Below, one piece after another: positions 1-52,330 of a stretch of 64,000 nt of DNA. The DNA is taken from IMG/VR virus record IMGVR_UViG_3300025011_000035. The stretch is one strand, 5' to 3'. This stretch comes from an uncultured virus (IMG/VR IMGVR_UViG_3300025011_000035). Lineage: Duplodnaviria > Heunggongvirae > Uroviricota > Caudoviricetes. Each line of letters starts with the position of its first letter. Positions within the stretch are counted from its first letter, which is position 1. Below the pieces are notes generated by a model. The model saw only the letters and a program-made list of their open reading frames with translations. It was not told the origin of the DNA and did no database searches. The position numbers were made by a program, and so were the translations under genes.

Positions 1-181
1 CTAATCTCTGCCCCGTTAAAATCAATCGTGATTTGCTTTGCTATTGTACCCAACGACCCTAAAGTGTATCTCTTTCCAGATTTAAACTGTACAGTTCCAC
101 CGATAGGACAAGCGTTAATTGCCCCTAATGTGGCACCTGTATCGGTTAGTCCTAGTATATAATGAGCTTCTACCTTTGTCG
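1..181. repeat. Direct repeat, copy 1 (copy 2 at 43827-44007)
   Basis: Base-by-base comparison: 1-127 identical, mismatches at 128, 131, 134 and 149, identity ends after 181. Confidence 0.97.
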
Positions 182-344
182 TATTTTCGGCCTTATACGA
201 CAGAAGTTCTTCGTTTAAATACGCATCATTATTAACTAATTGTTGATGAATGTTATCAAATAGTAAACCATCCCCAGGTGTATTTCTGTCCATTTTTACA
301 ACTTCAGCTAAGAAGTTTGTATTATCTCCTATAGTGTTAGCCAA
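1..344 (-). CDS. Tail fibre / receptor-binding protein of element A, 5' part (runs off the window start; not in ORF track)
   Basis: Own translation from TTG at 344 after SD AAGGGAG: MANTIGDNTNFLAEVVKMDRNTPGDGLLFDNIHQQLVNNDAYLNEELLSYKAENTTKVEAHYILGLTDTG... From TKVEAH on it is near-identical to the 42248..44077 protein. Confidence 0.85.
   Translation of the reverse strand, partial: MANTIGDNTNFLAEVVKMDRNTPGDGLLFDNIHQQLVNNDAYLNEELLSYKAENTTKVEAHYILGLTDTGATLGAINACPIGGTVQFKSGKRYTLGSLGTIAKQITIDFNGAEI
179..200 (-). other. Putative RBP-cassette recombination site S1 (in frame)
   Basis: Minus strand TCGTATAAGGCCGAAAATACGA; 6-bp inverted ends TCGTAT/ATACGA; homology with element B ends here. Confidence 0.65.
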
Positions 345-35405: not shown

Positions 35406-36047
35406 TTGAATATGAATATGGTACAATATGGAATGGCTAGAGATGAAAAGATTGTGAGACTAGTTTCCCAAGGAAAGGCATTCAACAGAAATCAGATTGA
35501 AAAACTTTTCTTTAATCAAAAAGATTCTACTAGAAAATGTCAATTGAGATTAAAGAAAATAACTGAATCAGGAAAATTAAACAAAATTATTAGAAGCCCT
35601 CATGAACCTGCGATATACTATTATGGTAAAAAACCTTTAAATATTGATCATGTTTTGCTTGTGAATGAAGTCTATACTTCTATTATGTCCCAAAAAAAGA
35701 GTTTTTATAAAATTAATTTTTATTGGGAATATCCTATCATGGATAAACTTAGAGCTGATGCTATGATAGATATTTATGATTTAATGTCAAAACGTAGGCA
35801 TGTAATTTTTCTAGAGGTAGAGAGATATGCAGATCATCGATTTGTGAAGAACAAAAATTATGAAACTGTAGCCCAAATGGGATGGAGTAATGAAGAATGG
35901 GCAATTAAAGAAAAGGACAGGATATTATTCCCTGCAATCTTAATTGTTACTGAAACAAAAATTACAATTAAAAGTGAACTAGATTTCTTTGTTGTTCCTA
36001 TTAGTTCAATTAAAAGTGATATTTATTCAATTATTATGAGGAGATGA
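35406..36047 (+). CDS. Replication-relaxation family-like protein
   Basis: wHTH N-terminus (RDEKI...QIEKLFF...CQLRLKKI), IDHVLLVNEVY, LRADA, FLEVE; follows FtsK as in Bacillus phages. Confidence 0.7.
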   Translation: MNMNMVQYGMARDEKIVRLVSQGKAFNRNQIEKLFFNQKDSTRKCQLRLKKITESGKLNKIIRSPHEPAIYYYGKKPLNIDHVLLVNEVYTSIMSQKKSFYKINFYWEYPIMDKLRADAMIDIYDLMSKRRHVIFLEVERYADHRFVKNKNYETVAQMGWSNEEWAIKEKDRILFPAILIVTETKITIKSELDFFVVPISSIKSDIYSIIMRR

Positions 36048-36271
36048 TAATATTGAGTAAGTTAAGTAAAGTTACAACCAAAGTTACTTATAGTTTACTA
36101 AATATGGCAATGAAACCTTTGTATGAGCAAATGAAAAAGGAGAGGAAGGAAGAGGTTAGAAGATGGAATAAGTCGTTGAATATTGCTTCACAGGATGCAA
36201 ATGCGGAAAGGAGGACATTTTCTGTAGTTCAAATGGAGGATTCTATAATACATTTAAAAGGATTATGGTAA
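36044..36271 (+). CDS. Hypothetical protein
   Basis: ORF coupled to the upstream gene; GGTGGTGG/CCACCACC hairpin downstream. Confidence 0.5.
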   Translation: MIILSKLSKVTTKVTYSLLNMAMKPLYEQMKKERKEEVRRWNKSLNIASQDANAERRTFSVVQMEDSIIHLKGLW

Positions 36272-36382
36272 ATATTTTTGGTGGTGGTAACTTCTGCCAC
36301 CACCACATTTGCATATTTCAACACAATTATGGTATAATAAGGACAAGTCAACAACATCTCAACATAGGAAGAAGGTCAATGA

Positions 36383-36862
36383 ATGAAATTAACTTGGAAA
36401 GAAGTTGTTACAAAATCAAATGTAAATGTTCCTGCTACAGCAACTTTCTATAGAGATAAATTTATTGACTTTTTTAACTATAAGCATGAAGGTAGAAATA
36501 GACGTTATGATGAAAGTTGTGTAGAAATTTTAAACCATATCTACAAAATGTATTCTGAAGGTAAAATTTATGAACATATATTAGAATCATTAGAAGATAA
36601 GTATGGAGTTCAAATTTCTAACATAGTTACTCAAGAGGATAATACCAATCCTACAACAATTCAATATGATCCATCAGAAGATATTAAGGAGTTATTAGAA
36701 GAGGTATCTAGTCTGAAAAATATGGTTAAAAAATTGACTATTGAAGCAGAAAATCGTGATGAAATACTTATGAAGAACATCAGAATGATACAGAGTCAAC
36801 AACAACTTAATAATCGACCATGGTGGGCGAAAATATTTAAGAAAAAGGAGAATGAACTATGA
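36383..36862 (+). CDS. MerR-like HTH plus coiled-coil protein (pSK1 Par / DUF3967-like)
   Basis: HTH with GRNRRYDE wing, coiled coil, C-terminal amphipathic PWWAKIF. Confidence 0.6.
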   Translation: MKLTWKEVVTKSNVNVPATATFYRDKFIDFFNYKHEGRNRRYDESCVEILNHIYKMYSEGKIYEHILESLEDKYGVQISNIVTQEDNTNPTTIQYDPSEDIKELLEEVSSLKNMVKKLTIEAENRDEILMKNIRMIQSQQQLNNRPWWAKIFKKKENEL

Positions 36863-37044
36863 TTATTAATGAAGATGATATTACTATTAAGAGGATTTAT
36901 TCAACTCATTGTCAAGTTTGTGGTAAGGCCCATGAGAATATTCAACTAGTATATTATGTTAGGGATGATAATAATTTAGTATGCAAGAGATGTGCTGATG
37001 AATCTGGATTACACATTGAAACAAGAATATTTTTCAATGGATAG
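36859..37044 (+). CDS. Small Zn-finger protein
   Basis: CQVC...CKRC. Confidence 0.6.
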   Translation: MIINEDDITIKRIYSTHCQVCGKAHENIQLVYYVRDDNNLVCKRCADESGLHIETRIFFNG

Positions 37045-37047
37045 TTA

Positions 37048-37102
37048 AAAAATATATAAGCCCTACAGATTTTAAATTAATCTGTAGGGCTTATATATTT
37101 TT
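37048..37102. terminator. Bidirectional terminator with 24-bp perfect arms
   Basis: AAAAATATATAAGCCCTACAGATT-N7-AATCTGTAGGGCTTATATATTTTT. Confidence 0.8.
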
Positions 37103-37141
37103 GTGTCGATATATCGTATAATGTATGAAGAATTACATAGT

Positions 37142-37248
37142 AAAAACCCTTGTAAGTGTTTGTCGGCAAAACTACCACTTACAAGGGCCACCCCTAGAAG
37201 AGAGAATTTACTTGATTTCATTTTATCAAAAAATTATCTCTCTGTCTA
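37142..37248 (-). ncRNA. Candidate countertranscript RNA (~70 nt; promoter included) upstream of a rep-like gene
   Basis: Minus TAGACA (37248-37243)-17-TAAAAT (37225-37220) with TG; hairpin CCCTTGTAAGTG...CACTTACAAGGG followed by TTTTT; loop contains TTTGCCGA. Confidence 0.55.
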
Positions 37249-37289
37249 GTGTTTTTTGCTATGCAAACATTGGAAAGAGGGTTTTTATT

Positions 37290-37832
37290 ATGCAAAAAAT
37301 TCAACAGCAAGTCTTCGATTTTCTAAAAGATATGGGTCGTGGTACAATATTGGCTGTAGCAAGCGATTTAATGCCCTTCTCGAACGACTCATTTGATAAT
37401 GCAAGGTTTATGTCTCAGCTTCTATTTTTAGCAGAAGGTAGAGAAGATGAGTTCATACCAATTACATTTAATGATTGGAAAGATGCAAAATTATCACGCT
37501 ATGCTGTAGAAAAAGCTCGTCACTTCTTCTATAGTATGGGCGTACTAGAATATAAGGTTAAAAAATTTAACGGAAATCCTACGGCCCATTATAAAATTGA
37601 TTTCAAATTATTCATGGAAAAATTAAAATCATTCTTTAAAAAGGTTGGAACAGTGATTTTCTCTAGTTATGCTGAAAGTCTCAAAAGGAAAAGAGAACAA
37701 GAACAGACAGAAATGAGGACAACACCTAAACCTCTATTAAACAAAGTATTAGAGAGTAAAAATATAGGACAAGTTGCAAAAAGGGAATCAAGACAGGAGA
37801 GAAAGGACAAATACGAAAAGTTTTACTTGTGA
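37290..37832 (+). CDS. Replication-initiator-like wHTH protein (ORF track start 37125; ATG 37290 preferred)
   Basis: SD AGAGGG before MQKIQQ; KVKKFNGNPTAHYKID wing resembles phage replisome-organiser N-termini. Confidence 0.55.
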   Translation: MQKIQQQVFDFLKDMGRGTILAVASDLMPFSNDSFDNARFMSQLLFLAEGREDEFIPITFNDWKDAKLSRYAVEKARHFFYSMGVLEYKVKKFNGNPTAHYKIDFKLFMEKLKSFFKKVGTVIFSSYAESLKRKREQEQTEMRTTPKPLLNKVLESKNIGQVAKRESRQERKDKYEKFYL

Positions 37833-40148: not shown

Positions 40149-40841
40149 TTAAGCAAGTTCTAATCTCTTAGTTGCATATCCCATAACAATGATCTGTTTT
40201 GCTAATGCATCTGCTTTTGAATTAAGAACACGAACAGATAAATATACATCCTTATCTACCACTTCTTGAATTTTAGATTGTGTTTTAGGACTCTTAAAAT
40301 TTATTCCATAGAATCTACAATGAGCTTTTGCAATTGCTTCACCTTCAGCATATTGTTCTTCATAAGTATCTATAATCTTATAATCAGAACTATCAATAAA
40401 TGCAAATTCAGAAATAATTGCAGGAGGGTTAGTATTACGAATAAATCCATAATAATCGTGAATGCCATCAGAACTTAATTTTGTTAAATCTCCTGAACCA
40501 TGTCTATTTTGACCTAGTTTATCAAACTCTTCTTGCATTATTTTTGCAAATTCTGTTCCTTTTCCATAAAAAACAGAATGAATTGTCTCACTTCCATCTC
40601 CACCTCCTGCATTATGGTGTATACTGTGACAGAGATTTGCATTTTTAATTAGATTTACCTGTCTAATCACTTCGTTAAGGTCTGACCCACTAATAATTGG
40701 GGGAACAGTTATTCCATTAAACTCCATTAATTCTTTAGCAATTTTAGCGACAATCATATTTATATCTCGCTCTATTAGTCCATTTGCTACAGCACCACTA
40801 TCTGAATCTCCATGACCTGCATTTAGAATACTAATTGGCAT
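40149..40841 (-). CDS. Endolysin, N-acetylmuramoyl-L-alanine amidase (Amidase_3)
   Basis: LNAGHG, E, SIHHNAGGG, AIISEFAFID zinc-amidase motifs. Confidence 0.92.
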   Translation of the reverse strand: MPISILNAGHGDSDSGAVANGLIERDINMIVAKIAKELMEFNGITVPPIISGSDLNEVIRQVNLIKNANLCHSIHHNAGGGDGSETIHSVFYGKGTEFAKIMQEEFDKLGQNRHGSGDLTKLSSDGIHDYYGFIRNTNPPAIISEFAFIDSSDYKIIDTYEEQYAEGEAIAKAHCRFYGINFKSPKTQSKIQEVVDKDVYLSVRVLNSKADALAKQIIVMGYATKRLELA

Positions 40842-40867
40842 AATATCAACTCCTAATTATAAGGTGA

Positions 40868-41848
40868 TTATTGAACCAAATATTGTTTATGTGATTGTTT
40901 TGTCTTTTCTTCTGTCATTCGAGCGTAAATCAAAGTTGTAGAAGGATCTTCATGCCCTAAAAGTTCTTGCACGGCCACTAATGAAGCTCCATTGTTGATA
41001 AGCAATGTGGCGAATGTGTGTCTCAATATGTGAGGATGTACATTTTTCTTAACTTCTGATCGTCCTGCTATAACCTTAATTTCTCTTTCAATTCCTCTAC
41101 ATGATAATCTTCCATTTGGTTTTCTTTCTGAAACGAATAAAGCAGGATCACTATCTAATCTTTGTAGTAAATATTTTTTTAAATGATATAGTGCTTTAAA
41201 ACTAAAATAAACATGTCTTTCTTTATTTCCTTTTCCAATTACAGTTGTAGACATAGCCTGAAGATCAATATCTTCCCTATTCATTTTTTGCACTTCTGAC
41301 AATCTACATCCTGTAGCATACAAAACTTCGATCAATGCTCTTTCTCTCGAACTTACGCAAGCTTCCCTAATCATTTCCAACTCATCAATTGTTAATGCTT
41401 TTGGTAATCGTTTCTCTTTTTTAGGTGTTTTTATTTTATAAGCATTGTCTTTATCAATTATCTCTTCGTTTCTCAACCAACTAAAAAAACTTTTAAGTAT
41501 TGAAATTTTCTTAGACATTGAACTAGTTTTAAGTTTATTGAATTTTCCTAAATACATCCTAATGTCATTTGTTGTAATATTTTCTACTAATTTATCTATG
41601 TGTTTACCAAATAACTTCAATTCAATTTCATATCCTGATAATGTGAGTTCGCTTAATCCTTCAAGTCTTTTTCCTGAAATAAAGATATTTATTTTTTGAT
41701 TAATATCTGACTCTCCATTTGTAAAATCATTTGGTTTTACAATATATGATTTTAGGATATCTTTAAACTTTTCCCTTATTATGGATTTGTCTACCTCTTC
41801 ACAAACTTCTCCAATACCATTTACCAACTCTTCTAATAAATCATCCAT
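40868..41848 (-). CDS. Tyrosine recombinase (XerD-like, with N-terminal SAM-like domain)
   Basis: TGCRLSE (R), GKGNKER (K), HPHILRH (HxxR), LGHE (H), TTLIYA (Y): catalytic set intact. Confidence 0.95.
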   Translation of the reverse strand: MDDLLEELVNGIGEVCEEVDKSIIREKFKDILKSYIVKPNDFTNGESDINQKINIFISGKRLEGLSELTLSGYEIELKLFGKHIDKLVENITTNDIRMYLGKFNKLKTSSMSKKISILKSFFSWLRNEEIIDKDNAYKIKTPKKEKRLPKALTIDELEMIREACVSSRERALIEVLYATGCRLSEVQKMNREDIDLQAMSTTVIGKGNKERHVYFSFKALYHLKKYLLQRLDSDPALFVSERKPNGRLSCRGIEREIKVIAGRSEVKKNVHPHILRHTFATLLINNGASLVAVQELLGHEDPSTTLIYARMTEEKTKQSHKQYLVQ

Positions 41849-41889
41849 TCTTATCCTCTCCCTCTCTTTTCTGATACTATTATAGTCTC

Positions 41890-41954
41890 AGTATAGCATG
41901 GAACTAAATTAGTTTCAATAGACCATTGAAACTTTTTTAGTATCATTGTATAAT
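41890..41954. promoter_or_regulatory. Divergent promoters sharing a palindromic operator
   Basis: AGTTTCAAT-AGACC-ATTGAAACT (41911-41933) supplies both TTGAAA -35 boxes; -10 TATACT (minus, 41895-41890) and TATAAT (plus, 41949-41954), both 17-bp spaced. Confidence 0.75.
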
Positions 41955-41974
41955 TAGTTTGAGGGGGAGTTTAT

Positions 41975-42175
41975 ATGAACTTACATAGTAATTTAAAAGG
42001 GTTGTTGGAAGAAAGAAATTTAAGTATTCGTCAGGTAGCCCGTGATATTGATTACCGTTTTTCTACAATACGACAAATGCATAATGACGATATGAAACAC
42101 TATCCAAAATCTCTACTTGTTAAGCTTTGTGAATACCTAAATGTTGGGATAGATGATTTATTAAAGTTAAAATGA
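41975..42175 (+). CDS. Cro/C1-type HTH regulator
   Basis: LKGLLEERNLSIRQVARDI...LVKLCEYLNVGIDDLL. Confidence 0.85.
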   Translation: MNLHSNLKGLLEERNLSIRQVARDIDYRFSTIRQMHNDDMKHYPKSLLVKLCEYLNVGIDDLLKLK

Positions 42176-42180
42176 TAAAC

Positions 42181-42210
42181 AAAAACCGCCATAATAATTG
42201 GCGGTTTTTT
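42181..42210. terminator. Bidirectional terminator
   Basis: AAAAACCGCCA-TAATAAT-TGGCGGTTTTTT between convergent genes. Confidence 0.8.
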
Positions 42211-42215
42211 ATTCA

Positions 42216-42237
42216 TCATCTAATGAACAGTTAATGT
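42216..42237 (-). other. Putative RBP-cassette downstream site S5 (degenerate)
   Basis: Minus ACATTAACTGTTCATTAGATGA, 10 bp after the RBP stop; last 10 bases match S4 at 8 of 10. Confidence 0.4.
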
Positions 42238-42247
42238 CTGTTACGTC

Positions 42248-44077
42248 TTAGAGTCCCAATCCTAAGTGATACCGAATTGTTTTAGCTGTTGCTAAATTGT
42301 TCTGTACTTGGATATAACCACTCTCTACATAAATATTAATCGTACTCGAATTATCTTTAACATCACTGAATTGAATATTTGGATTACTTAGCATAGTAAC
42401 GAACTTACCTCCATTTGCTGTCGATGCACTAACCACAAATATTGCCATAGTCCCGTCAGACACATTTGCAACATTTAATAACCCATATTTCCCTTGAGGT
42501 ACATTCGATTGCTGTATACCAGCACTCGAAACGGAATACGATTTCTTATAGCTAGGTGTCCCTAAACTTAGAAATTCTGGCAATAATAAAGATACAGAAG
42601 CATTAGTACAATTACTTGCTAAATTAGCGTCCAGAGTAAGTGCCTTGGTCGTTACATCAATAGCGACAACCTTATAATTACCAGTAACACCGTTTACGAC
42701 AATGATACATTCTGCTGTTAATTGTATAGGTATATTATTTAAAATTATGGTATTTTCTCCGATTACCCCCGTTCCAGTTACGGATGAAATTGTATTCTGA
42801 GTCCCTCTTACAATACACTGTAGTCCTATATCCTTTAATCCAGTGTTAGCGTTTTTATTATAGATGGTGTCTCCAACTTCATAATTTCCTGCAGGTATTG
42901 CATCAACATCTTGTTTATACGACCTAATTTTAGATCCTCTTACGTTTATAATATCCGAATTAACAGTGTACCCGTCAACATACTTTAACCCATGAATGGA
43001 ATGCGGTATAGTATAGATAGTATCGTGTAATTCCGATCTATTTGAATACCCCGTCTTACCGTTTTGGGCTGAAAAACAGGCATTATTTATTCCTATATAG
43101 TAAGAATTTGAAAATCCAGCAACATCTGGATAGATCCCTCCTGTTTGCCAAAAATTATCCTCGCATTTCAAATTTACAGCATCACCCACAATGATTTTTT
43201 TATCAGTTGTGTTCCCAAAATGTCTGCAATTTTTAAAGGTTACTACCGCAGCCGTATATTTTGACCTATCGCTATTATAAAGATACACATCAAAGTTTTG
43301 ATTAGCCTCGAAATATACGCCGATGGCTAGTAAGGCAAACAGAGTTCCAGTACCTAACCATTTCATACCACCACCAACGCAACTTTCGATTACACACTTA
43401 CCCTCGAATGATATAGCTCCACCCTCAATAGCAATACCGATCCCACTAAAAATAGTTATGTCTAAATCTCGGATAACATTATTGTAGGAGTAATTACCGT
43501 CATAAGCAGCCCCACTGTATTGATTAAAGTAAAGACCATAAGGAGCAACACAATCATAGACTGTAATTCTATCCCCCATTGTTCCATAACCACTAACATT
43601 CCTAATAAGGCTATGGTTTGCAGTAACATGATAGAATTTACAATCTTCCACCAATGTATTTATAGCATCCTTTACGGTAATATTTCCAATCTTAATTATT
43701 GTATCGAAATTAGAAGACCCAACAAGGGATACAAATTTCGCATTAATTATCTTTGGTGGTTTAAATTCTGCCCTATCACTTGAATTTGCAGGTTGATAGA
43801 CAATAAAATCTCCTGTTCCATCAAGACTAATCTCTGCCCCGTTAAAATCAATCGTGATTTGCTTTGCTATTGTACCCAACGACCCTAAAGTGTATCTCTT
43901 TCCAGATTTAAACTGTACAGTTCCACCGATAGGACAAGCGTTAATTGCCCCTAGTGCGGTACCTGTATCGGTTAATCCTAGTATATAATGAGCTTCTACC
44001 TTTGTCGGATTATCTGCCAACTCCGACGTATGAACATCAACTAATTCCTGTAAGATTTTAATTTTTGGTTTTCCCAT
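42248..44077 (-). CDS. Receptor-binding protein / tailspike with a pectin-lyase-like beta-helix; body shared by both phages
   Basis: AINA...GGTVQF...ITIDFNGAEI beta-helix cap, YFEAN; only ~24 aa of element-B-specific N-terminus. Confidence 0.8.
   Translation of the reverse strand: MGKPKIKILQELVDVHTSELADNPTKVEAHYILGLTDTGTALGAINACPIGGTVQFKSGKRYTLGSLGTIAKQITIDFNGAEISLDGTGDFIVYQPANSSDRAEFKPPKIINAKFVSLVGSSNFDTIIKIGNITVKDAINTLVEDCKFYHVTANHSLIRNVSGYGTMGDRITVYDCVAPYGLYFNQYSGAAYDGNYSYNNVIRDLDITIFSGIGIAIEGGAISFEGKCVIESCVGGGMKWLGTGTLFALLAIGVYFEANQNFDVYLYNSDRSKYTAAVVTFKNCRHFGNTTDKKIIVGDAVNLKCEDNFWQTGGIYPDVAGFSNSYYIGINNACFSAQNGKTGYSNRSELHDTIYTIPHSIHGLKYVDGYTVNSDIINVRGSKIRSYKQDVDAIPAGNYEVGDTIYNKNANTGLKDIGLQCIVRGTQNTISSVTGTGVIGENTIILNNIPIQLTAECIIVVNGVTGNYKVVAIDVTTKALTLDANLASNCTNASVSLLLPEFLSLGTPSYKKSYSVSSAGIQQSNVPQGKYGLLNVANVSDGTMAIFVVSASTANGGKFVTMLSNPNIQFSDVKDNSSTINIYVESGYIQVQNNLATAKTIRYHLGLGL
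43827..44007. repeat. Direct repeat, copy 2 (of 1-181)
   Basis: 177 of 181 identical. Confidence 0.97.
44005..44026 (-). other. Putative RBP-cassette site S2 (in frame)
   Basis: Minus TCGGAGTTGGCAGATAATCCGA; inverted ends TCGGA/TCCGA. Confidence 0.65.
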
Positions 44078-44096
44078 TGATTAACCTCCTTTTATT

Positions 44097-44118
44097 TCGT
44101 ATAATGCGTCAACTACGC
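44097..44118 (-). other. Putative RBP-cassette downstream site S4 (non-coding)
   Basis: Minus GCGTAGTTGACGCATTATACGA, starting 1 bp after the stop of the 932-aa RBP; same length and conserved positions as S1-S3. Confidence 0.6.
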
Positions 44119-44119
44119 A

Positions 44120-46918
44120 TTAAGTTAATGCACAAACAGTACCCGTCTTTATGGTTGCCCCATCCGAATATAAGGCAACAACCTTTAAATTATTAGTTGC
44201 TTGATCAATCCAAAATGCCGCTTGACTTGCTCCCATATCCGCTAAGACTGAGGCTGCTTTTGCATCAAAGATAAATTTTTGATCCCAAGTCAACCGCAAC
44301 CCATCATGTGGGACTCCATTCGCCATAACCTGCATTACAAAACCGCTTTTTTCACCCCCTCCCGCTAGGCTGCTTCCTTTTATTTTTAGTGCCGCTATTT
44401 CCGTCTTTACTAATGCACCATTTCTCTTGTAAAAACTAATACGATCATTTGTGGCATCCCAATTGTCATACGGAAGAGTTTCGAGCTTTAAACCACCCCT
44501 CACCCTAATATCACCCACATTACTAAAGTGATCAGTATTATAGGGGGTGTCACATAATGTTATATCGTTGCTATTCACATTATTGAGTATCATGTCTATA
44601 CAATAAATACCATAACGCGGCCGTTGCGTATGGCCCATCGTTTGACCAATTATAGTATTATTTTTTACGCTATTGCCAGTCTTTCCATCGTTGACATGAA
44701 TTCCATCATAAGTGCTACCGGTATACATATCACAATCAATAATGGTATTATTTTTGACTTGGTTATACAAACCATTAATGAGTATTCCATGCCCAAAGAT
44801 ATTACCTAGTGTATTATTATTGATTGCCACCCTTGATGAATTACAAACAATACCATGCCCTCCGACATTCGGTTTATCAGATAAATCAGACCACCAACGA
44901 CCGATAATAGTATTGTTACAAACAGAGGCTTCGCCAGTTCCAGATGTTGTACCATAAGCTAAAATCTCAATTACTGTATTTGCAGTATGTTGCATATAGT
45001 TGTCATTTATTTTTCCTGAGTTTAGAGAACCATAATAGAATTTCCTTGAATCGTCCATATGGTTATCAGATATATCGATGCCTATGGATTCTAGAGAGTT
45101 ATTAAGTATTGCACAAGAGTCAGTGACCCCGGCGCCAAACCCACCGTTTGAGTGAAATCTGTTATCGTGGATTTCGTGACCTCGACATTCTGCCCAAGTG
45201 CCATCCAACACATTGTTAATGACGATACTAAAGGCACAACTCGAGAAGGTATTATTTCTCATTTTCATATTTCGGCCATAATAATCAATAGCCTTGTTAA
45301 ACTTCATAAAGAAATTACCTTCAATCCATGAATCTAAATCAGCTATAGCACTAGGGCGTTTTAAACGAATAGCTGTTTGTGTTGAACTTTCGCCATAATT
45401 TTTACCGTCAGAACTAGTAAAATACAGATACTTAGATCTAAACTCACTACCTTGAACGTCTATAAATATTGAATTGGGCTTAGTAAATATCAACTTAGCG
45501 TTATAGTGCCCATTTGCTTCTGCAACGAATGAAATATTATCCTTTGTCACCGTGACCGTATCTGCAAAAGCATAAAAACGCAAATCGCCCGTTGTTGGGA
45601 ATTTAACAATAGTTCCAGGTGGAGAATTAGTTAACAGTTGATTCAAGATTGTTGCACAATCATAGACAACACCTACTAATGTATATGATCCATCAGGATT
45701 AAAACTATATGATGTTAATTGTGGTCTTGTATATGGGGCAGGTAATTTATCAAAGTTTATTACATATTCGTTCGTAGTTTCAGCCTTATACGTCTCAAAC
45801 CGTTCTTTAATGTTACCGCTAACGTTGGATAATTCAACGTCAGTGACGCCACCGGCTTGTATTTGCGATCCAGCAATCGCTCCAGAGGTAGAGTCGACGA
45901 TGGCTTTATGTACTCTAAAAACAACAATATCGTCGAGATCAAGCGTCCAACCTAACAAATCAACACCTAAACCGTTTTCATTCTCAGCATACTCCATATC
46001 CTTGGTTAAAAACTCGCCATTATAAATAACATCAAAATAGTCGGAATCAGGATTATATGACGGTAAATTAATAGGTACAAACGACTCATTCCCGACACCA
46101 ATATATGTCGATGTCATTATGGCATCCCTACCAAGACTTAATGTGCTAGCTACATTATCTACGGCGGTTTGTATTACTTCAAATCGTTCTTCGCGCAAGT
46201 CTTCAGATACGTCCCTCAATCCTTCTGCTGTATTAAACACAGATGATCTTGATGCTTCGCTGGCGTTGAAGGTCGTAGTTCTATCGTTCTGACTGGTCGA
46301 GAAAGTGTTGGCTCTGGCGGCTTCATTGACGGCGAAAGTCGTTTCCCGTCCGTCCTCAGCCGTTATTCTGGAAGCTTCGCTAATCTCTCTCAATTCTTCT
46401 GCGGTGTTAAACACCAAGGATCTAGAAGCTTCGCTGGCGTTGAAGGTCGTAGTTCTATCGTTCTGACTTGTTGTGAAAGTGGTCTGCCACTCTGCCAACG
46501 CACTAACAATACTGGATATATACTTGATGCTTAACAAGCCGATACTAGCATCTACATAAAAGACAAATGTTGTGGAGGATAAAACGTTAACCCCATCGGT
46601 AAAAACTATTTCTGCTTCAACTTTACCATCTATAGCCAGCGTGGCGGCTTTTAATACACATTCAAACTTACCGGTTAATGCGTCCAAAATAGTTACACCT
46701 GTTGTGCTATCTTGGGATACGACCGCATTATCCGAACGTAAAAAATTGAATTGTACAGTTTGACCCGTTATGTTTACAGGCAATCCTTCATCGACTATAG
46801 TTATCTCCAAAACAGACGTACCCGCATTACCTTGTTTAAACAAAGTGTTATTAGTAAGCATTTTACTTTTTAAATCGATTGTAAGTTTGTATCTATTTTC
46901 CAAAATGACACCTCCCAT
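44120..46918 (-). CDS. BppU-type baseplate upper protein fused to a beta-helix receptor-binding domain
   Basis: N-terminal FKQGNAGTSVLEITI...GKVEAEIVF (BppU/DUF2479-like), coiled-coil repeats, NNTI parallel beta-helix repeats. Confidence 0.8.
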   Translation of the reverse strand: MGGVILENRYKLTIDLKSKMLTNNTLFKQGNAGTSVLEITIVDEGLPVNITGQTVQFNFLRSDNAVVSQDSTTGVTILDALTGKFECVLKAATLAIDGKVEAEIVFTDGVNVLSSTTFVFYVDASIGLLSIKYISSIVSALAEWQTTFTTSQNDRTTTFNASEASRSLVFNTAEELREISEASRITAEDGRETTFAVNEAARANTFSTSQNDRTTTFNASEASRSSVFNTAEGLRDVSEDLREERFEVIQTAVDNVASTLSLGRDAIMTSTYIGVGNESFVPINLPSYNPDSDYFDVIYNGEFLTKDMEYAENENGLGVDLLGWTLDLDDIVVFRVHKAIVDSTSGAIAGSQIQAGGVTDVELSNVSGNIKERFETYKAETTNEYVINFDKLPAPYTRPQLTSYSFNPDGSYTLVGVVYDCATILNQLLTNSPPGTIVKFPTTGDLRFYAFADTVTVTKDNISFVAEANGHYNAKLIFTKPNSIFIDVQGSEFRSKYLYFTSSDGKNYGESSTQTAIRLKRPSAIADLDSWIEGNFFMKFNKAIDYYGRNMKMRNNTFSSCAFSIVINNVLDGTWAECRGHEIHDNRFHSNGGFGAGVTDSCAILNNSLESIGIDISDNHMDDSRKFYYGSLNSGKINDNYMQHTANTVIEILAYGTTSGTGEASVCNNTIIGRWWSDLSDKPNVGGHGIVCNSSRVAINNNTLGNIFGHGILINGLYNQVKNNTIIDCDMYTGSTYDGIHVNDGKTGNSVKNNTIIGQTMGHTQRPRYGIYCIDMILNNVNSNDITLCDTPYNTDHFSNVGDIRVRGGLKLETLPYDNWDATNDRISFYKRNGALVKTEIAALKIKGSSLAGGGEKSGFVMQVMANGVPHDGLRLTWDQKFIFDAKAASVLADMGASQAAFWIDQATNNLKVVALYSDGATIKTGTVCALT
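45772..45793 (-). other. Putative RBP-cassette site S3 (in frame)
   Basis: Minus ACGTATAAGGCTGAAACTACGA, 19 of 22 identical to S1 of the other phage, at the shaft/head junction (YKAETT versus YKAENT). Confidence 0.65.
46254..46468. repeat. 41-bp intragenic direct repeat (46254-46294 and 46428-46468)
   Basis: Encodes SQNDRTTTFNASEA twice, 174 bp apart. Confidence 0.85.
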
Positions 46919-46931
46919 TTTTTAATAAAAA

Positions 46932-47486
46932 CTACCACGCAAATTCTTTGACTTGCGTGGTAGTTTGTGCAGCCATGATTTGGTTTCTCATTTCATAATA
47001 ACGAGCCATTTTTGTATCGATATGCAATTTTGACTCGGCATAAAGAATAATAAACTGCTCTCTCGTGTGGAGTATAACCCCGGCATCCTTAGTGGTCCAA
47101 TTCAAAGACAATACGGCTGGGTTTAAGAGTAAAGAGTTCATTTCTCGATTGAAGTTTGTCTGCCATTCTTCATTGAACTTGTAAGAATGCTCAACGCCCG
47201 TACAGGCAGAAGTAAACCCGTTAAGAATATCGAGGTTGCAAGCGATATTAATTTCTTCAATTTTAGATTGTTGAACATGCGGAAGATTAACCGAATCTGG
47301 AATTGGCGTATAGATCGGATCTCCATCCACAAACGTGTAATTGGGATAATTTTCTATGATATGTTTATCGACGACGTCGTCGAGATATAAGCCGGTCAAT
47401 TTTCCACGCTTAACTAGACCCGCTATTGGATAAGGGGCCTCACAGGAATAGATAAACTTTCCATATTCATCGTAAAACAAATACAT
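46932..47486 (-). CDS. DUF4376-like tail fibre assembly protein
   Basis: KIEEINIACNLDILNGFTS...WTTKDAG...QIMAAQTTTQVKEFAW. Confidence 0.7.
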   Translation of the reverse strand: MYLFYDEYGKFIYSCEAPYPIAGLVKRGKLTGLYLDDVVDKHIIENYPNYTFVDGDPIYTPIPDSVNLPHVQQSKIEEINIACNLDILNGFTSACTGVEHSYKFNEEWQTNFNREMNSLLLNPAVLSLNWTTKDAGVILHTREQFIILYAESKLHIDTKMARYYEMRNQIMAAQTTTQVKEFAW

Positions 47487-47498
47487 TCCTACGTCCCC

Positions 47499-50400
47499 CT
47501 ACCAAGGCTTAATCACTAAGTCAACTCTACTGATATAGCAAGTCCCTATAGTAGCTTTAACCGCCACATATATGTCCTGCCCTGGAAATATAACGAAGTC
47601 TATAACCGTTCTTTGCTTTATGAACTCTGTCGATTGAGTTGTCATATGTGGTAGAGATTGGTCATAAGGTTCCATGTAGACATATGGTAGACCGTTAGAA
47701 CCAAATATGTCGATCTCGCCCTTTCCACCACTTGAAACTTTCCAAGTTACTTCAAGGGCCATCCAACCCAATTCCGATTCAGCACTCATAGTGTGCAGAA
47801 GAGACGCTGTAGTAAGAGCTGAGAATAACGTCATAGTAGATTGACCCATGGTTAACGCTTTATACTCGTCAGACGCCGTCGATACATATGATTTATGGTC
47901 TGGATAATATAAAGCAGTGTAAACTTCTTTAACCACCGAACCGTCTTCTCCTGGAACTCCATCTGTTCCCTGGAATATTTTCCAAGAGTAATGAATATAG
48001 TTCGAACTCTGAGAAGAACTAAAGTCCGTATAGGTGCCGATGTATTTACCACTTGTATAGTTGAATCCAGTGCCAGAAGTGTCTTCGGCATACGCTATGT
48101 GTAGATACGTCGTCTGACCGTCATCACCTTTAATTAAGCTCCAAGCATAGTCGGATGGAGTCGAACTCTCAGTAATGACCAACTTATTAACCGCAATACC
48201 TACATATCTTTTTCCGGTAGGATTATCACTCATATTAGTACCAGCAGAATCGTCCGCATATTTAATCCAAGTATACCCACTTACTCCAGGTATTCCTTGA
48301 TCGCCGACGACTTTAACCCATGTATATTTTGTATAGTCGTCCGAATCATCTAATATGTTGTCTACGTACGTCCCCATGTATATACCAGAGGCCTCACCAT
48401 TATTGACTGTGAAAGGTGTTCCACTACTACTATCCGAATATTTAATGTGAAAGTACGAAGCTTTAGTGTCGGCATAGGTTTTTGATGCTGATACAATAAG
48501 TTGCCATAGTATCCCACGCTGGGCATAGTAAGTTATAAATTTTGTATCGAATTCGACCCTAGAAACAAGGGAGGTCGATGTGGTACTCAAAATTGGAAGC
48601 GTGTTACCAACCAGAACTGTGACATTTAAATAATCGTTTAAAGCGTTATACGCAGACGTATATGTACCAGCGTTTACGCCATATAGTCCAGCTTGGTTAA
48701 TCAGACTTTGATAATCCAAGACTATGGCGTCCCATATAGGTTTTAAGGTCTTTACTTTTTCGTTCTTAGTTATTTTATTATCGTCCGCCATCTCATCCAA
48801 ATCAAACATGGCTTCCTCGGCCGCTATTTGGGCATTTTCAGCAGCGAGTTGGGCTTTCGCCGCAAGTAGAGAACTACCCATAGCTATACCCTGAGGAACC
48901 CCATCCGTTATTTTTGTAAATATGTCGGCATACGAATCCGTTGTAGTACTACCATGAAGTACCTCCAAAGCACATCCTTGGAATAATCCAGGTATACCGA
49001 TAAATGCGTACGGATATTCACCAATCCCTGTATCTACTCCAGATCCGCCGCATCTCACAACTGCGTCTAACAATGTAGGATTCCATCCAATTGAATCGTT
49101 AGAAGTAAGCACTACGATAACAGTATCATCCCACGAATTCAGATTTGTGGCTAACGCGTTTCTTGTCGTGTCATCCAAAAATGTGTCGTACAATTGAGCA
49201 AAAACGACATCTAAAGTTTCCCGACTAAGAACCGTTAACATTAACCCTCTACCGGATATACTACAGGCTTCGATTTTCTTTTTGTTGAGCTTTAAATAAC
49301 GCTGTCCACTCTTCGCGCCAGTTCCTCTAATAGATAATTCTCCATCTATTGTAAATTCTGGGGTTTTGATGGTGATGGCGTTTTCCAAAGTCAATTTTGT
49401 ACTCATTACCAATGCAAATTTATCAAGCAAAGCCTTTTTATCTATTGTCTTCATTTTTTTAGGATAACTATCTAACGATAAATCGACCCACTTGTTTAAT
49501 TCCACTTGTAATCCTGTTGTACCCGTTAGTGAATCACGATATTTAGTCACCAGTTCAGGCGTAACCGCCATATCCTCAGCAATAGCAATTACATGATCAC
49601 TTTCCACGAGTATGTTATCAAAAGAGGCCTTAAGTGAAACTGATTCTGAATAATCAATAAACCCGTTTTTAGCGAACATTGTTATATCCGTTTGCATGCT
49701 TATTATGGCGATACCTAACTCGAAGGCTTGTTCGTCCGTATAAGTTAATAGGTTGTCAATTTTTATACGGGTCATAACATCATTCAAAGCGGTTTTGGTT
49801 GTTTCAACGCGTTTAAGTTTACTATTTAGGGTTTTACCCTTATATACAGAAATGGTGATAGGATAATTTGGTTGGCCTATCCAATCGTTCATCGCCGATA
49901 ACGCGTCTGTCATGGAACTTTTGAAAGTGCTTTCCGTCGTCGTTAGACTGGTTAAATCAGCACTAGGATCATCGAGTAATAATTTCAATCCATCAGCAAT
50001 CGTAATTATATCGTTCGACTCTGTTTCGACGGCTACGAATAACGTATTTAAAGTAACCGATTCTGGTTGCTGAATCTCTCCATTTTCAATATAGATATTG
50101 GCCTGAGTTTGAAACGCGCTTAACGCGGTATTTAACTCGGCTACTTGGTTCTCCACATATCTCTTTCCGTCATCTTGTCGATTTTTACTGATTGCATCAT
50201 TGAGTAGCGACTTGGTATTTTGGACGTTCTTGAACAGCGTACTAATCGCGACCATATCCCCTGCTAGGACCGGTATCGGATATTTAATCTGGTCAATCCA
50301 CTTGCTTCTCAATTCCGTGTCGAGAGCCGTCAACGCGCTTGAATAAGCCTCTTTTTCTGTGATAATTTCTAGAGTTCCAGCGATACGAATGATATCTTCC

Positions 50401-51641
50401 GACTCAGCTGTAAGTTGCTCCAAATCAAGTTTCAACGCTCTAGCCTCGGTTAATGTAATCCAGCCATCAGATGAGAATTTATCTACATCAGTAATCAATT
50501 CGGACAATTCGGTATCTAACTCCTGAATTTGAAGGTCCAGATAATTTGATGCTTTAATCAGATCCTGTTTTACAACTTGTATAACATCGGCTACGCTTTT
50601 GGCTATATTAGATTTAAAATTTCCTAATTCAATCTTTTCAATTCGATTCGTCAAGCAGTTCTTTACTGTTTTTATGACTTTTGCGTTGAGATTAATGTTC
50701 ATTCTTGAATGTTTTATGGTGACTAGATCTCCGAGTTCGACGGTTTCTAATATCGCATAATTCTTGTATTCCTCGGTCTTAGATAACTCAACCAAGTCTA
50801 TCTTGTAATTGAACGTTGGTATATCGATCTTAGAATCGATCAAAAAGTTGGTTGCTGCGAGTCTCAATTGTGCAATCGCCATCTCTTCAGTAATCAACAG
50901 ACTTTCGTCAACGCCAATGTCGCTAAAATCCAGAGTTTTAATAACTGGATTTGGATAGTTGTCAATATATGGACTGTCGACGTACTTCTCAGGTAGTAGC
51001 AGTTCATTATTACCAATTGGCATCAGGCGCGTACAAAGGCCCTCTGTGGTGAGTGTTTCTTCTATACCTTCTATATTCTTCCCATAAGCGATTAGGACGC
51101 CTCTATCAAGCCCTCTGGCCTCTAAGAGCTTAACTGAGTAGTTATCCATAACGAGTTCTCCACCCCATGTGGCTATAATCCCTTCAGAACCTAGAATTGC
51201 CTCAACCGGATTCATACGAGTAATCGTTTTAGTGTTGACTCCAGCAACATCGCTAGTGGCCTCAAAATTATGAGTATACTGAGTTGCGCCTAAGACTGAA
51301 GTAAGTGCTGATGCGCCGGACGCTTCGGTCAAAGTTAAACTTTCAATTAAATTTCCAAGTAGATCGTAGAAAATATGACGAGCATTAACTTTAACATCAG
51401 TCAACGTCTTTACTTTGCGATAAATCCTAAATAATTGACTATCAGCTTTTATGATGTTATCCTCTAATAGATATTTCCACTTACCTCGCGCATCTAATGG
51501 ATGGGTTAATTCAAGTTCGTACATACCATTTAAACCTTCGGTTAATGGTGCAGAAATAGTTTCAGACAATACAACCAAACCGTTATTATTAAAGTCTGCG
51601 CATTTACTACCATACACGTTAATCATTATTTCCACCGCCAA
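47499..51641 (-). CDS. Tal / prophage tail endopeptidase-type spike with helical repeats, an ILEI-like domain and HIxY(A/S)D repeats
   Basis: EGLNGMYELELTHP...YGKNIEG...TRLMPIG...VELGDLV N-terminus; later domains by motif. Confidence 0.85.
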   Translation of the reverse strand: MAVEIMINVYGSKCADFNNNGLVVLSETISAPLTEGLNGMYELELTHPLDARGKWKYLLEDNIIKADSQLFRIYRKVKTLTDVKVNARHIFYDLLGNLIESLTLTEASGASALTSVLGATQYTHNFEATSDVAGVNTKTITRMNPVEAILGSEGIIATWGGELVMDNYSVKLLEARGLDRGVLIAYGKNIEGIEETLTTEGLCTRLMPIGNNELLLPEKYVDSPYIDNYPNPVIKTLDFSDIGVDESLLITEEMAIAQLRLAATNFLIDSKIDIPTFNYKIDLVELSKTEEYKNYAILETVELGDLVTIKHSRMNINLNAKVIKTVKNCLTNRIEKIELGNFKSNIAKSVADVIQVVKQDLIKASNYLDLQIQELDTELSELITDVDKFSSDGWITLTEARALKLDLEQLTAESEDIIRIAGTLEIITEKEAYSSALTALDTELRSKWIDQIKYPIPVLAGDMVAISTLFKNVQNTKSLLNDAISKNRQDDGKRYVENQVAELNTALSAFQTQANIYIENGEIQQPESVTLNTLFVAVETESNDIITIADGLKLLLDDPSADLTSLTTTESTFKSSMTDALSAMNDWIGQPNYPITISVYKGKTLNSKLKRVETTKTALNDVMTRIKIDNLLTYTDEQAFELGIAIISMQTDITMFAKNGFIDYSESVSLKASFDNILVESDHVIAIAEDMAVTPELVTKYRDSLTGTTGLQVELNKWVDLSLDSYPKKMKTIDKKALLDKFALVMSTKLTLENAITIKTPEFTIDGELSIRGTGAKSGQRYLKLNKKKIEACSISGRGLMLTVLSRETLDVVFAQLYDTFLDDTTRNALATNLNSWDDTVIVVLTSNDSIGWNPTLLDAVVRCGGSGVDTGIGEYPYAFIGIPGLFQGCALEVLHGSTTTDSYADIFTKITDGVPQGIAMGSSLLAAKAQLAAENAQIAAEEAMFDLDEMADDNKITKNEKVKTLKPIWDAIVLDYQSLINQAGLYGVNAGTYTSAYNALNDYLNVTVLVGNTLPILSTTSTSLVSRVEFDTKFITYYAQRGILWQLIVSASKTYADTKASYFHIKYSDSSSGTPFTVNNGEASGIYMGTYVDNILDDSDDYTKYTWVKVVGDQGIPGVSGYTWIKYADDSAGTNMSDNPTGKRYVGIAVNKLVITESSTPSDYAWSLIKGDDGQTTYLHIAYAEDTSGTGFNYTSGKYIGTYTDFSSSQSSNYIHYSWKIFQGTDGVPGEDGSVVKEVYTALYYPDHKSYVSTASDEYKALTMGQSTMTLFSALTTASLLHTMSAESELGWMALEVTWKVSSGGKGEIDIFGSNGLPYVYMEPYDQSLPHMTTQSTEFIKQRTVIDFVIFPGQDIYVAVKATIGTCYISRVDLVIKPW

Positions 51642-52330
51642 TTAGGTATAATTTCAATTTTACTAACTGACCCAATCCAACTAATAGTATTTGTATCGAC
51701 AGTAAGTTTAGGAAAGTCTCCACTCATATCAGAATTTTTAAGAACATTATCCTTAAAACAATCCATTATATCACTGTCAATAGTTACATATTCTGAGACG
51801 TTCGTGAGAGTTATCAAAATGCCATTCACCATAAGATAAATAGTTCCGTCACCGTAAACTTTGATAACGGGATCACTCTCATGCGTCCCACGTCCATAGA
51901 TAGTTCCGTCACCATACATAGTCTCTTGAGGTATGAGAGTGATCTTTGAATTATCAAGCATTTTTGCAAACGGTTGACAATCAAAGACCACTACAAATTT
52001 ATACCATTGACGTATTATACGACTGAATGGTATTTGATTCATTATACTAGCTTGATATTTACGATCTGGTTGGTTTGAGAAAATAACTTCTCCAGATCTG
52101 TCTAACCAAGCTAGAACTCTATCCACCAATGCGATATCTAACAACGTACATTCGCAGGATTTGATCACGCTACCGTAAGTCCCAAAATCCTCGGTTAGGA
52201 AACCATTTCTGCCAGGTATAAATACCTTATTTATATCTCGATTAACCTTAATGATTGGGGGTAACTCGGTTACCAAGATCCCCATATCTTTACTAGAAAT
52301 GTCTTTGTATATAAAATACGGTTCGCCCAT
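51626..52330 (-). CDS. Distal tail protein (Dit)
   Basis: IPGRNGFL...FSNQPDRKY...FDCQPF...GDFPKL...PNWRW; follows TMP. Confidence 0.85.
   Translation of the reverse strand: MGEPYFIYKDISSKDMGILVTELPPIIKVNRDINKVFIPGRNGFLTEDFGTYGSVIKSCECTLLDIALVDRVLAWLDRSGEVIFSNQPDRKYQASIMNQIPFSRIIRQWYKFVVVFDCQPFAKMLDNSKITLIPQETMYGDGTIYGRGTHESDPVIKVYGDGTIYLMVNGILITLTNVSEYVTIDSDIMDCFKDNVLKNSDMSGDFPKLTVDTNTISWIGSVSKIEIIPNWRWK

Follow-up and report, generated by a model that had tools for sequence, protein, structure and literature searches.

A conserved site past tail-fibre stop codons accompanies a Xer-type phage recombinase and lies at the borders of receptor-binding protein modules

Introduction

How do unrelated receptor-binding heads come to be joined, at sharp and repeated boundaries, to otherwise conserved tail proteins, and does a recombinase encoded close by have a part in it? 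The question is raised by the 64,000-nt viral contig IMGVR_UViG_3300025011_000035 (the window, meaning this whole stretch), which carries receptor-binding protein (RBP) genes in two phage-like regions, with a tyrosine recombinase gene beyond the RBP genes of one of them; the relevant genes are all on the minus strand. Change in phage RBPs is thought to come mostly from chance recombination, and the known programmed systems invert or mutate DNA. An earlier note on this DNA, made from its letters alone, proposed instead that 22-bp palindromic sites (S1 to S5) bracket every RBP head and that promoterless, start-less head cassettes are inserted in frame in the manner of an integron. Our analysis partly supports that proposal, with in-frame cassette capture unproven. 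A family of non-coding sites, here called T sites, exists, is specific and is linked to one recombinase clade in viral contigs; T sites lie at mosaic boundaries and in direct-repeat pairs around modules, and the 3′ joint of a head carried by two phages falls inside one of them. We infer that the recombinase cuts at the T site, creating or exchanging modules and so changing host range. The features on which the argument turns are as follows.

44120..46918, minus strand: RBP1, with a BppU_N domain (PF10651, 9.1e-21), a repeat-bearing shaft and head A
42248..44077, minus strand: RBP2, consisting of a 24-codon adaptor and head B and provided with a ribosome-binding site (RBS) and ATG of its own
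44097..44126, minus strand: T site (contains S4), non-coding; left arm containing the stop codon, core GACGCATTAT, right arm extending into the RBP2 RBS
42216..42250, minus strand: decayed T site (contains S5), with the stop codon, left arm GACGTAACA, GAC, a changed core and right half TGTTCATTAGAT as in L012
40868..41848, minus strand: XerA/C/D-like 'armless' tyrosine recombinase, 326 aa (PF00589, 2.9e-36)

A conserved non-coding site at the 3′ end of RBP genes

All five 22-mers lie on the minus strand with exactly the positions and letters that had been reported, S4 beginning 1 nt past the RBP1 stop codon (44122–44120) and S5 10 nt past that of RBP2 (42250–42248). S4 proved to be a genuine conserved non-coding site, as claimed, but its framing was wrong, the 22-mer being part of a ~30-bp site that starts at the stop codon. 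The motif was found by a fuzzy search around recombinase homologues from IMG/VR (33 loci, 26 of them at 59–82 % identity) and from genomes, and recurs near these homologues with the consensus tTA(A/G)tgtCGCAGT(A/T)GACGCATTATGCGC. A 30-column matrix was built from the non-coding sites, with each locus left out in turn, and duplicate or near-identical loci (L093, L097, L101, L108, L111, L112 and L115) were dropped.

One clade of tyrosine recombinase travels with this site, which stands just past the stop codons of RBP or tail-fibre genes: a T site of at least 16 bits was present in 17 of the 23 de-duplicated loci encoding a recombinase 59–82 % identical to that of the window (41 % in L015). Two loci fell just below this threshold (L098, 15.7 bits; L104, 15.1 bits), and no T-site match was found in L096, L117, L013 or L015; wherever a recombinase locus had a match, it was on the tail-gene strand. 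Around unrelated Xer genes (76 control loci, 2.53 Mb), no match reached 16 bits, one reached at least 14 and four at least 12. The T site of the window scored 35.6 bits (28.3 bits under a matrix that excludes all W-type sites), was the only match of at least 12 bits on its strand of the window, and is repeated after RBP2 in the relatives L004 and L167. The reverse test pointed the same way, exact GTWGACGCATTATGCG matches in IMG/VR (n=30) showing the family context in eight instances, six with the recombinase in the locus and two at contig ends. In four of five phage records (52–83 kb), the core occurred once or twice, only at family places, with none in the reversed control; it was not present in the fifth record (W-type, G003).

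The two halves of the site behave differently. In most copies, the stop codon of the preceding ORF lies 12–16 nt 5′ of GAC, whatever the ORF, and the 9 nt from stop to GAC follow a loose pattern (nnCGYAGTW) that differs between heads, while the sequence from GAC onward goes with the downstream DNA. Since left-arm positions (−9 to −1) vary about one-third of the time among the four W-type copies of S4, as counted by eye, while the sequence from GAC onward stays near-constant, the T-site arms appear to go with the heads. The conserved core, GAC(G)CATTAT, has a dyad symmetry of only 0.40 about its centre, and the right arm starts with TTATG.

S5, in the register proposed for it, matches only 5 of the 13 positions invariant in S1–S3, and its ungapped matrix score is −14. 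Aligned instead with the sites of L012 and L096, it has the same left arm, the GAC and the right half TGTTCATTAG; judged by this alignment, S5 is a decayed copy of the T site.

The recombinase

The 326-aa protein scored 230.2 bits against NF040815, the XerA-type NCBIfam model (cut-off 220), and 220–221 bits against XerC/XerD models, under their cut-offs of 330–335. Its best solved relatives are XerD and XerA (XerD structure 1a0p, 1.2e-33), and it is without an arm-binding domain. The C-terminal catalytic region is conserved in alignment A1, including HxxR, LLGH and IY, which we take to be the catalytic residues. The closest relatives in named genomes are from Desulfosporosinus (61–65 % identity). 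The comparison with an integron integrase did not hold for this enzyme, which scored 100.9 against TIGR02249 (cut-off 265) and 67.8 against NF011946 (cut-off 435), both in two stretches, and matched the IntI4 structure 2a3v at 4e-17 only, again in two stretches.

The T site might be the attP of the phage's integrase; we regard this as unlikely, as the lysis genes continue past the recombinase and complete relatives carry a second, different integrase. We also considered the T site as a mimic of the host dif and rejected this. A candidate family dif, ATAA-TAGATA-TTATGTAAAGT (L226–L230; genomes G015, G030, G034, G035 and G063), is mid-chromosome in four of the five genomes, the fifth showing a one-region variant, and it has another central region (TAGATA vs GACGCA) and left arm. 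A right arm starting with TTATG is shared by the T site, this candidate dif and the dif sequences quoted in PMC3025954.

Mosaic boundaries coincide with the site

Relatives were drawn from IMG/VR and JGI contigs, namely the siphovirus loci L004 (=L005), L011 and L167 and the myovirus copy L002. The siphovirus relatives have a common plan, consisting of shaft, neck motif, head A, stop codon, S4-type site, RBS and ATG, followed by 24 codons, neck motif, head B, stop codon, a second S4-type site, a terminator and the opposite-strand recombinase. The shaft of RBP1 is 86–87 % identical to those of L004, L011 and L167, up to 45773, 45767 and 45772, respectively; beyond S3, head A is unrelated to the heads of the relatives, homology stopping within 5 nt of the S3 3′ end in all three. 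Homology restarts at 44123, 44122 and 44117 (L004, L011 and L167 comparisons) and ends again around S2, at 44003, 44009 and 44005. Residues 1–25 of RBP2 are 92 % identical to those of the L004 RBP2, whose head differs. By BLASTP, the heads tested are mutually unrelated, except that head B of the window matches the myovirus head, and the two L167 heads gave no DNA match in the window, L004, L011 or L002. Head breakpoints thus pile up at the junction motifs and at the T site in all four relatives, as the earlier note had anticipated.

Head B supplies the most precise joint. Its DNA (44018–42236) is 99.6 % identical to the RBP gene of the myovirus in L002, where that gene is complete (640 aa), the phages being otherwise unrelated, and positions 1–201 of the window repeat 43827–44027 at 95 %. 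The identity between the siphovirus and myovirus heads runs through ...CAGAC in the central region of the site and stops at 42236; past the common ...TAAGACGTAACAGAC, the window goes on with ATTAACTGTTCATTAG... and L002 with TAATTATACGAAATATG.... An IMG/VR search for further contexts of head B returned L002 only. Sequencing evidence was taken from the Logan contigs of four runs. In run X1, the head-B contig (42236–44007, depth 130) overlaps three other contigs at 42236–42265, giving three continuations from 42236 at depths of 20.6, 116 and 11.1; since these contigs diverge there, head B is joined to three right-hand contexts at one base inside the site. The 5′ end of head B has two contexts in this run, S2-type and S1-type.

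The same behaviour is seen across the family. In an all-against-all BLAST of 32 sites with 500 nt on either side, nearly all in-register alignments start between −18 and +5 or end between −11 and +21 of the core, and because alignments begin or stop at the site in this way, its left and right flanks appear to assort independently. Two or three direct sites are present in 9 of 19 site-bearing loci (L092, L095, L098, L100, L102, L107, L110, L113 and L014), and L167 likewise has two direct T sites; the third sites of L110 and L114 are coding junction motifs. Direct-repeat sites flank single modules beside the recombinase, such as RBP2 in L004, L011 and L167, a pair of 72-aa and 691-aa ORFs in L095, a 411-aa SPRY-domain ORF in L092, and a promoter-plus-ribbon-helix-helix (RHH) module in L110, L113, L014 and L107, where a conserved stretch of ~80 nt precedes the recombinase-proximal site. 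L012, with a single site and the same right flank, looks like the 'empty', unoccupied form. As in integrons, the modules form arrays in one orientation, each with a terminal site, beside the recombinase. In none of the loci examined did a T site lie beyond the recombinase gene, and the idea that this gene lies inside a site-flanked element was rejected on that ground.

Several loci showed further peculiarities. The promoter-plus-RHH modules (L110, 755–1699; L113, 1327–2094; L014, 11510–12244) have a strong promoter of the extended −10 type, an RHH gene that is conserved and a second ORF that varies, and contain an inverted part-copy of the site (TGTCGCATAAT) ~75 nt before the proximal site. 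In L114 (8918–12169; record G006), three consecutive tyrosine-recombinase genes (419, 323 and 346 aa) stand between the Xer-like recombinase and the T sites, which looks like a recombinase-trio mobile element inserted in that interval. In L013 (3246–5492), a metagenome-assembled genome, a 748-aa AEP-TOTE/helicase/PLD protein (TOTE conflict system) adjoins a 61 %-identical recombinase homologue, suggesting defence cargo beside the recombinase. L167 (3975–4068) has lost all but ~100 nt of the 3′ end of its recombinase gene, with both T sites intact; this was rejected as a site-bounded event, being a plain deletion without a site at its ends. A 'skips 1665' joint in run X5 was rejected as a deletion form, since it belongs to a relative with another head.

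In-frame junctions between shaft and head

The sites S1–S3 lie inside coding sequence, at the junction of shaft or adaptor and head.

3..344, minus strand: 5′ part of the myovirus RBP gene, a 55-aa adaptor followed by head B, running off the window start
179..200, minus strand: S1, coding, in-frame neck motif S-Y-K-A-E-N-T at the myovirus adaptor/head junction
44005..44026, minus strand: S2, coding, in-frame neck motif S-E-L-A-D-N-P, 5′ breakpoint of head B
45772..45793, minus strand: S3, coding, in-frame neck motif T-Y-K-A-E-T-T, 5′ breakpoint of head A

All three begin at codon position 1, so that the shared reading frame reported for them is real, as is their distribution over two unrelated phages (an XkdK/XkdM-type myovirus and a TMP-Dit-Tal siphovirus). 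The letters said to be common to S1–S4 (CG at 2–3, A5, G9, C11, A14, T18 and CGA at 20–22) are shared above chance, the consensus matching only those four places in 64 kb on both strands, against 0.00 matches in shuffles; this comparison is not independent, however, because the pattern was derived from the same four sites. In a fairer test with the 13 positions invariant in S1–S3, only 5 further 22-mers among 127,958 matched at 10 or more, S4 being one of the five. S2 and S4 have 15 of 22 letters in common, and only five 22-mers of the window are that close to S2.

Other properties assigned to the 22-mers were not borne out. As palindromes, their terminal 5-bp inverted repeats fold at −0.9 to −2.6 kcal/mol (z −0.9 to −1.7), and the fold energies of the whole 22-mers are within ~2 standard deviations of shuffles (z 0.0 to −2.2). 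S4 does have a hairpin, but an offset one (TAATGCGT/ACGCATTA, z −4.1) that the relatives L004 and L011 do not retain. The inverted ends do not covary, there being no covarying column pair and no dyad axis above 0.44 complementarity among 36 family sites. None of S1–S3 belongs to the site family by its matrix, S1 and S3 scoring −7.3 and −10.6. Nor is the head cassette start-less, as RBP2 has its own AAAGGAGG RBS and ATG, 51 nt upstream of S2; a promoter scan of the region did no better than shuffles and called none before RBP2. Finally, the synonymous positions of S2 and S3 vary among W-type relatives, between GCT and GCC in S3 and between GCA and GCT in S2.

The junctions are nevertheless related to the T site. 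Scored with the non-coding matrix in the register of the earlier note, all 18 junctions examined (S1–S3, five counterparts in relatives, S4 as a control and nine of the H-(Q/L/K)-A-D type, mostly HQADYA) ranked in the top 0.24 % of the background and 10 of them in the top 0.0025 %, the background frequency of the coding junctions ranging from 2e-3 to below 4e-7. S2, with a matrix score of 4.6 bits and a background frequency of 2.5e-5, is the junction motif most like the T site; for S1, the frequency is 1e-3. In nine tail-fibre genes of relatives, the junction L-A-x-H-Q-A-D-Y-A forms a 27-nt island between unrelated flanks, and its codons are uniform (CAT in 9/9, GAT in 9/9, TAT in 7/7 and GCG for the second Ala in 7/7). 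The background ranks and the uniform codon choice argue that the coding neck junction and the non-coding site are related at the DNA level, in keeping with the earlier proposal. The presumed central regions are unlike (GGCNGA in the junction and GACGCA in the T site), and likeness in sequence does not establish the junctions as substrates of the recombinase. At its 5′ end, the transferred head is joined ~8 nt rightward of the expected Xer-type crossover, and because two right-arm mismatches lie left of this joint, it is not a clean central-region crossover. Exchange at the 5′ boundaries S1–S3 more likely rests on short homology or selection than on the recombinase.

A proposed role for the site and competing explanations

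We tentatively favour a reading in which the Xer-type site and the phage-encoded recombinase at the tail/lysis junction form a fixed crossover and uptake point for modules, which the sequence comparisons make plausible, if short of probable. The setting would be a group of temperate phages of Desulfosporosinus-type Firmicutes. The T site would comprise ~28–30 bp, with the preceding gene's stop codon inside its left arm, GACGCA at the centre and a right arm from TTATG, and would probably be used by the XerA/C/D-like recombinase at the far end of the tail-fibre cluster. A crossover in the central region would link whichever gene lies upstream, together with its left arm, to whichever segment lies downstream, together with its right arm, and a circular or foreign segment with one T site taken up there would leave two direct sites around the module. 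In the window and four relatives, the predicted module is the whole RBP2 gene, including its RBS and 24-codon adaptor; the decayed S5 would now lock RBP2 in place.

A number of observations weigh against this proposal. The dyad symmetry of the site is weak (at most 0.44). Among 69 genomes of the Desulfosporosinus family, only five have the recombinase clade, yet AKTWGACNCATTATG matched 20 times, against 7 in the reversed control; 12 of these matches score at least 22 bits, a score of which the pattern itself supplies much. Nine loci, inspected to ~9 kb on either side where the contig allows, have a T site without a recombinase of the clade; two are prophage ends with the order fibre, site, endolysin, and several are not phage DNA, lying for example beside Big_5 and TIR-domain genes. 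Downstream of the T site there is usually a terminator, an arrangement also compatible with a 3′-end or regulatory element. Because copies occur without the recombinase, often before a terminator, the site may have a role independent of the enzyme, or such copies may be orphan footprints. Where S4 and the second site are both present, the stretch common to them ends variably among relatives, from about +10 to +28, and two active direct-repeat sites should delete the DNA between them. The head transfer, as noted above, has its 5′ joint rightward of two mismatches in the presumed right arm. The contigs of the four runs show no recombination product, although such contigs cannot judge excised or deleted forms. 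Moreover, the Xer genes of Bacillus cereus-group phages have been proposed to resolve dimers of plasmid prophages (in the relevant text of PMC7685451).

One chromosomal locus was inspected as a possible site-bounded element. In L212 (4146–6946; genome G040), a 2.8-kb tRNA-adjacent island, not present in four related genomes, has a leucine-rich repeat (LRR)/Big_3 surface-protein gene between T sites of 35.9 and 38.2 bits. The island ends at the tRNA gene and not at the sites, and was rejected as such an element, a result that adds to the points just listed.

Part of this evidence would be expected if homologous or illegitimate recombination exchanged the heads at short conserved linkers and selection then acted on the products, as in ordinary modular mosaicism. 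On this account, which we judge rather unlikely, S1–S3 are conserved as a trimeric neck motif, the T site is a 3′-end or operator element near the terminator and the recombinase is unrelated to both. It accommodates the in-frame position of S1–S3, their varying synonymous positions, the failure of S1 and S3 against the site matrix and a 5′ joint at no fixed base (44003, 44005, 44009 and 44018), as well as T sites without a recombinase and outside phages, mostly right before a terminator or promoter. Many sites also hold a 6-1-6 palindrome, RCGCAT-N-ATGCGY, read by eye and typical of a dimeric regulator, and an RHH or helix-turn-helix (HTH) gene adjoins many of them; this palindrome is, however, lost in the W-type sites and in the classes with right arm TTATGTCT or TTATGTTC. 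Harder to reconcile with mosaicism are a non-coding site kept at 20–40 bits beside recombinases that have diverged to ~60 % and absent from 2.5 Mb of controls, unrelated heads that end with a stop codon at near-equal distance from the core and with a conforming but variable left arm, and a single head connected to three contexts at the same base. Alternatively, the recombinase and one T site might serve only to resolve multimers of a circular (plasmid-type) prophage or replicating genome, like Xer/dif or Cre/loxP, with the extra sites and mosaic boundaries being by-products of a hot spot and not a host-range device. The enzyme is of the Xer type without an arm-binding domain, most loci have one strong site beside its gene, the FtsK/SpoIIIE-like, Replic_Relax and DnaD-like genes of the window are a set tied to Xer-bearing plasmid prophages (in the text cited from PMC7685451), complete relatives carry a second, different integrase, and the conserved ~80 nt upstream of recombinase-proximal sites could be an accessory sequence. 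We consider resolution as the sole function, and the by-product view that goes with it, unlikely, given the two or three high-scoring direct sites in 9 of 19 site-bearing loci, a site always at the stop codon of the last tail gene and not at an arbitrary place, its resemblance to the coding junction motif and the orphan gene-plus-site units in chromosomes.

The integron-like model of the earlier note, with promoterless, start-less heads inserted in frame by recombination of the coding sites S1–S3 with the downstream S4/S5, gains from the junction ranks, the uniform HQADYA codons, breakpoints at S3 and S2 in four of four relatives, and arrays of uniform orientation, flanked at one end by the recombinase, in which every 3′ end has a site. 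We nonetheless hold it to be very unlikely: the enzyme is not an integron integrase (TIGR02249, 100.9 vs 265), the sites are not hairpins, the central regions of junction and T site differ, the S1/S2 joint is off the presumed centre, no silent start-less heads lie downstream of any site, and RBP2 is equipped with an RBS and ATG of its own. The exact DNA motif of the junction is also restricted to this phage group, so that shared descent could explain it. It is very doubtful that this is a 'protein-fusion cassette' system, in which the Xer-like recombinase would act on in-frame neck junctions and related T sites, and whole heads, bringing their stop codon and left arm with them, would be exchanged or captured in frame between unrelated phages such as the siphovirus and myovirus that share one genome here.

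Comparison with described systems

Literature searches returned no description of such a site or arrangement, yielding only the Rin shufflon and comments about the Xer genes of Bacillus phages. The Rin shufflon of Bifidobacterium prophages (Mavrich et al. 2018; PMC6109161), in which silent Rv segments are inverted at 11-bp rix sites, is the closest described system. According to that text, its RBP locus likewise ends with an armless XerD-like recombinase, which is separate from the integrase of the phage, and has short repeated sites that bound variable C-terminal parts of the RBP; the baseplates are of the TP901-1/BppU type. In contrast to the arrangement given there, the sites described here are ~30-bp direct sites after stop codons, without silent inverted heads, and the predicted outcome is exchange, insertion or deletion and not inversion. 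The window has no inverted repeats of at least 40 nt, the sites are on one strand in each locus, and there are no extra downstream head ORFs. As for diversity-generating retroelements, a Pfam scan of 65 ORFs of the window turned up no reverse-transcriptase family, and the only long direct repeats of the window are the head duplication and the repeats in the tape measure protein (TMP) and shaft genes.

In Acinetobacter plasmids, dif-like (pdif) sites alternate in orientation, whereas the sites found here are all direct. The pdif modules resemble the present ones in being small accessory modules bounded by Xer sites and in their XerC/D/A-family recombinase (PMC6449649 and PMC7399989), and the T-site right arm starts with TTATG, as does that of dif. 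The differences are a dedicated phage recombinase in place of host XerCD alone, a cargo of tail-fibre/RBP genes, and a central region of GACGCA in place of the TAGATA of the host dif candidate. Integrons share with the present system a recombinase at the end of the array, modules in one orientation with a site that starts at the stop codon, and lone gene-plus-site units in chromosomes. They differ in that the enzyme described here is under the integrase cut-offs, its gene is convergent or co-directional with the array and not divergent, the modules may carry promoters or an RBS, and the T sites are not folded hairpins: the 36 sites have neither covariation nor a conserved dyad of the attC kind, and the folds of S1–S5 are no better than those of shuffles except for the offset S4 hairpin. 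Rfam contained no family that fits the sites, the only two matches, both sub-threshold, being at the terminator.

Tail-fibre and tailspike genes are known to be mosaic at conserved linkers, for example in P22-like tailspikes and at the His boxes of T-even phages. The sharp breaks seen here where a conserved neck motif links the shaft to unrelated heads resemble this pattern, which is not known to involve an associated recombinase or a conserved non-coding site after the stop codon. Izhevsk and other phages of the Bacillus cereus group have a Xer-type gene among tail and lysis genes, with Replic_Relax-type genes nearby; in the part of the report that concerns these genes (PMC7685451), their role is only proposed and no site is described.

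Other features of the window

The myovirus region, of the XkdK/XkdM type, extends from position 1 to ~33 kb and encodes sheath, tube, an XkdN chaperone, TMP, LysM, YqbQ, Baseplate_J and Gp48-like proteins. The siphovirus region (38–64 kb), of the TMP-Dit-Tal type, has the gene order TMP (52330–58110), Dit, Tal (47499–51641), a DUF4376 fibre protein, RBP1 and RBP2, followed by an opposite-strand HTH gene, the recombinase gene and an Amidase_3 endolysin gene. The features around the recombinase gene are given below.

42181..42209, minus strand: intrinsic terminator common to the RBP operon and the convergent HTH gene, the sole terminator-like site in 40500–47000
41975..42175, plus strand: Cro/C1-type HTH regulator (PF13443, 1.2e-10), divergent from the recombinase gene
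40149..40841, minus strand: Amidase_3 endolysin (PF01520, 1.2e-18), where the lysis module begins, after the recombinase

The HTH-recombinase arrangement is 77 % identical in L096. The intergenic region of these two genes (41850–41975) contains a palindrome, AGTTTCAAT-N6-ATTGAAACT, between divergent promoter-like hexamers, which is probably the operator by which the HTH protein controls the recombinase. On the plus strand between the two phage regions, a block of FtsK/SpoIIIE-like, Replic_Relax, MerR-like and DnaD-like (replication-O-like) genes (33953–37832) is a possible plasmid-prophage maintenance module or small integrative conjugative-type element. In the early region of the myovirus, a 951-aa ORF (24991–27846, minus strand) matches the RdRP family PF05183 (8.1e-15, in two stretches) and may be a phage-encoded single-subunit RNA polymerase, presumably like the one known from SPbeta-like phages. 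The myovirus tape measure gene has in-frame tandem repeats (6892–7455, five copies of ~102 nt), and the RBP1 shaft has a 96-nt repeat (46212–46481, 88 % identity).

A search of PDB sequences with RBP1 and RBP2 gave no usable match, and the 'beta-helix' nature of the heads consequently rests on by-eye repeat patterns and a pectate-lyase-like Pfam match, which was obtained with RBP2 of L004 only. The RBP region had no match in the GenBank phage collection (megablast, blastn and tblastn); the closest record, G001, is a fragment identical in sequence and broken off at the head repeat. The sequencing runs that carry the stretch are labelled as groundwater and sediment metagenomes, with no RNA run listed among them.

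Significance

The T site bounds exchangeable modules, is common to unrelated phages in one host and resembles the in-frame neck junction. If the T site does serve crossover and module uptake, a dedicated recombinase of the Xer type, working at a set position on the stop codon of tail-fibre genes, would constitute a third route of RBP change; it would explain the very sharp head boundaries in many Firmicutes phages and would give a defined sequence for the borders of RBP modules. If protein-fusion cassettes did exist, they would amount to programmed host-range switching by direct-repeat recombination, unlike invertase shufflons, diversity-generating retroelements and classical integrons. Even if the recombinase only resolves dimers, phages of this group have in the T site a newly defined and specific indicator of a recombination hot spot.

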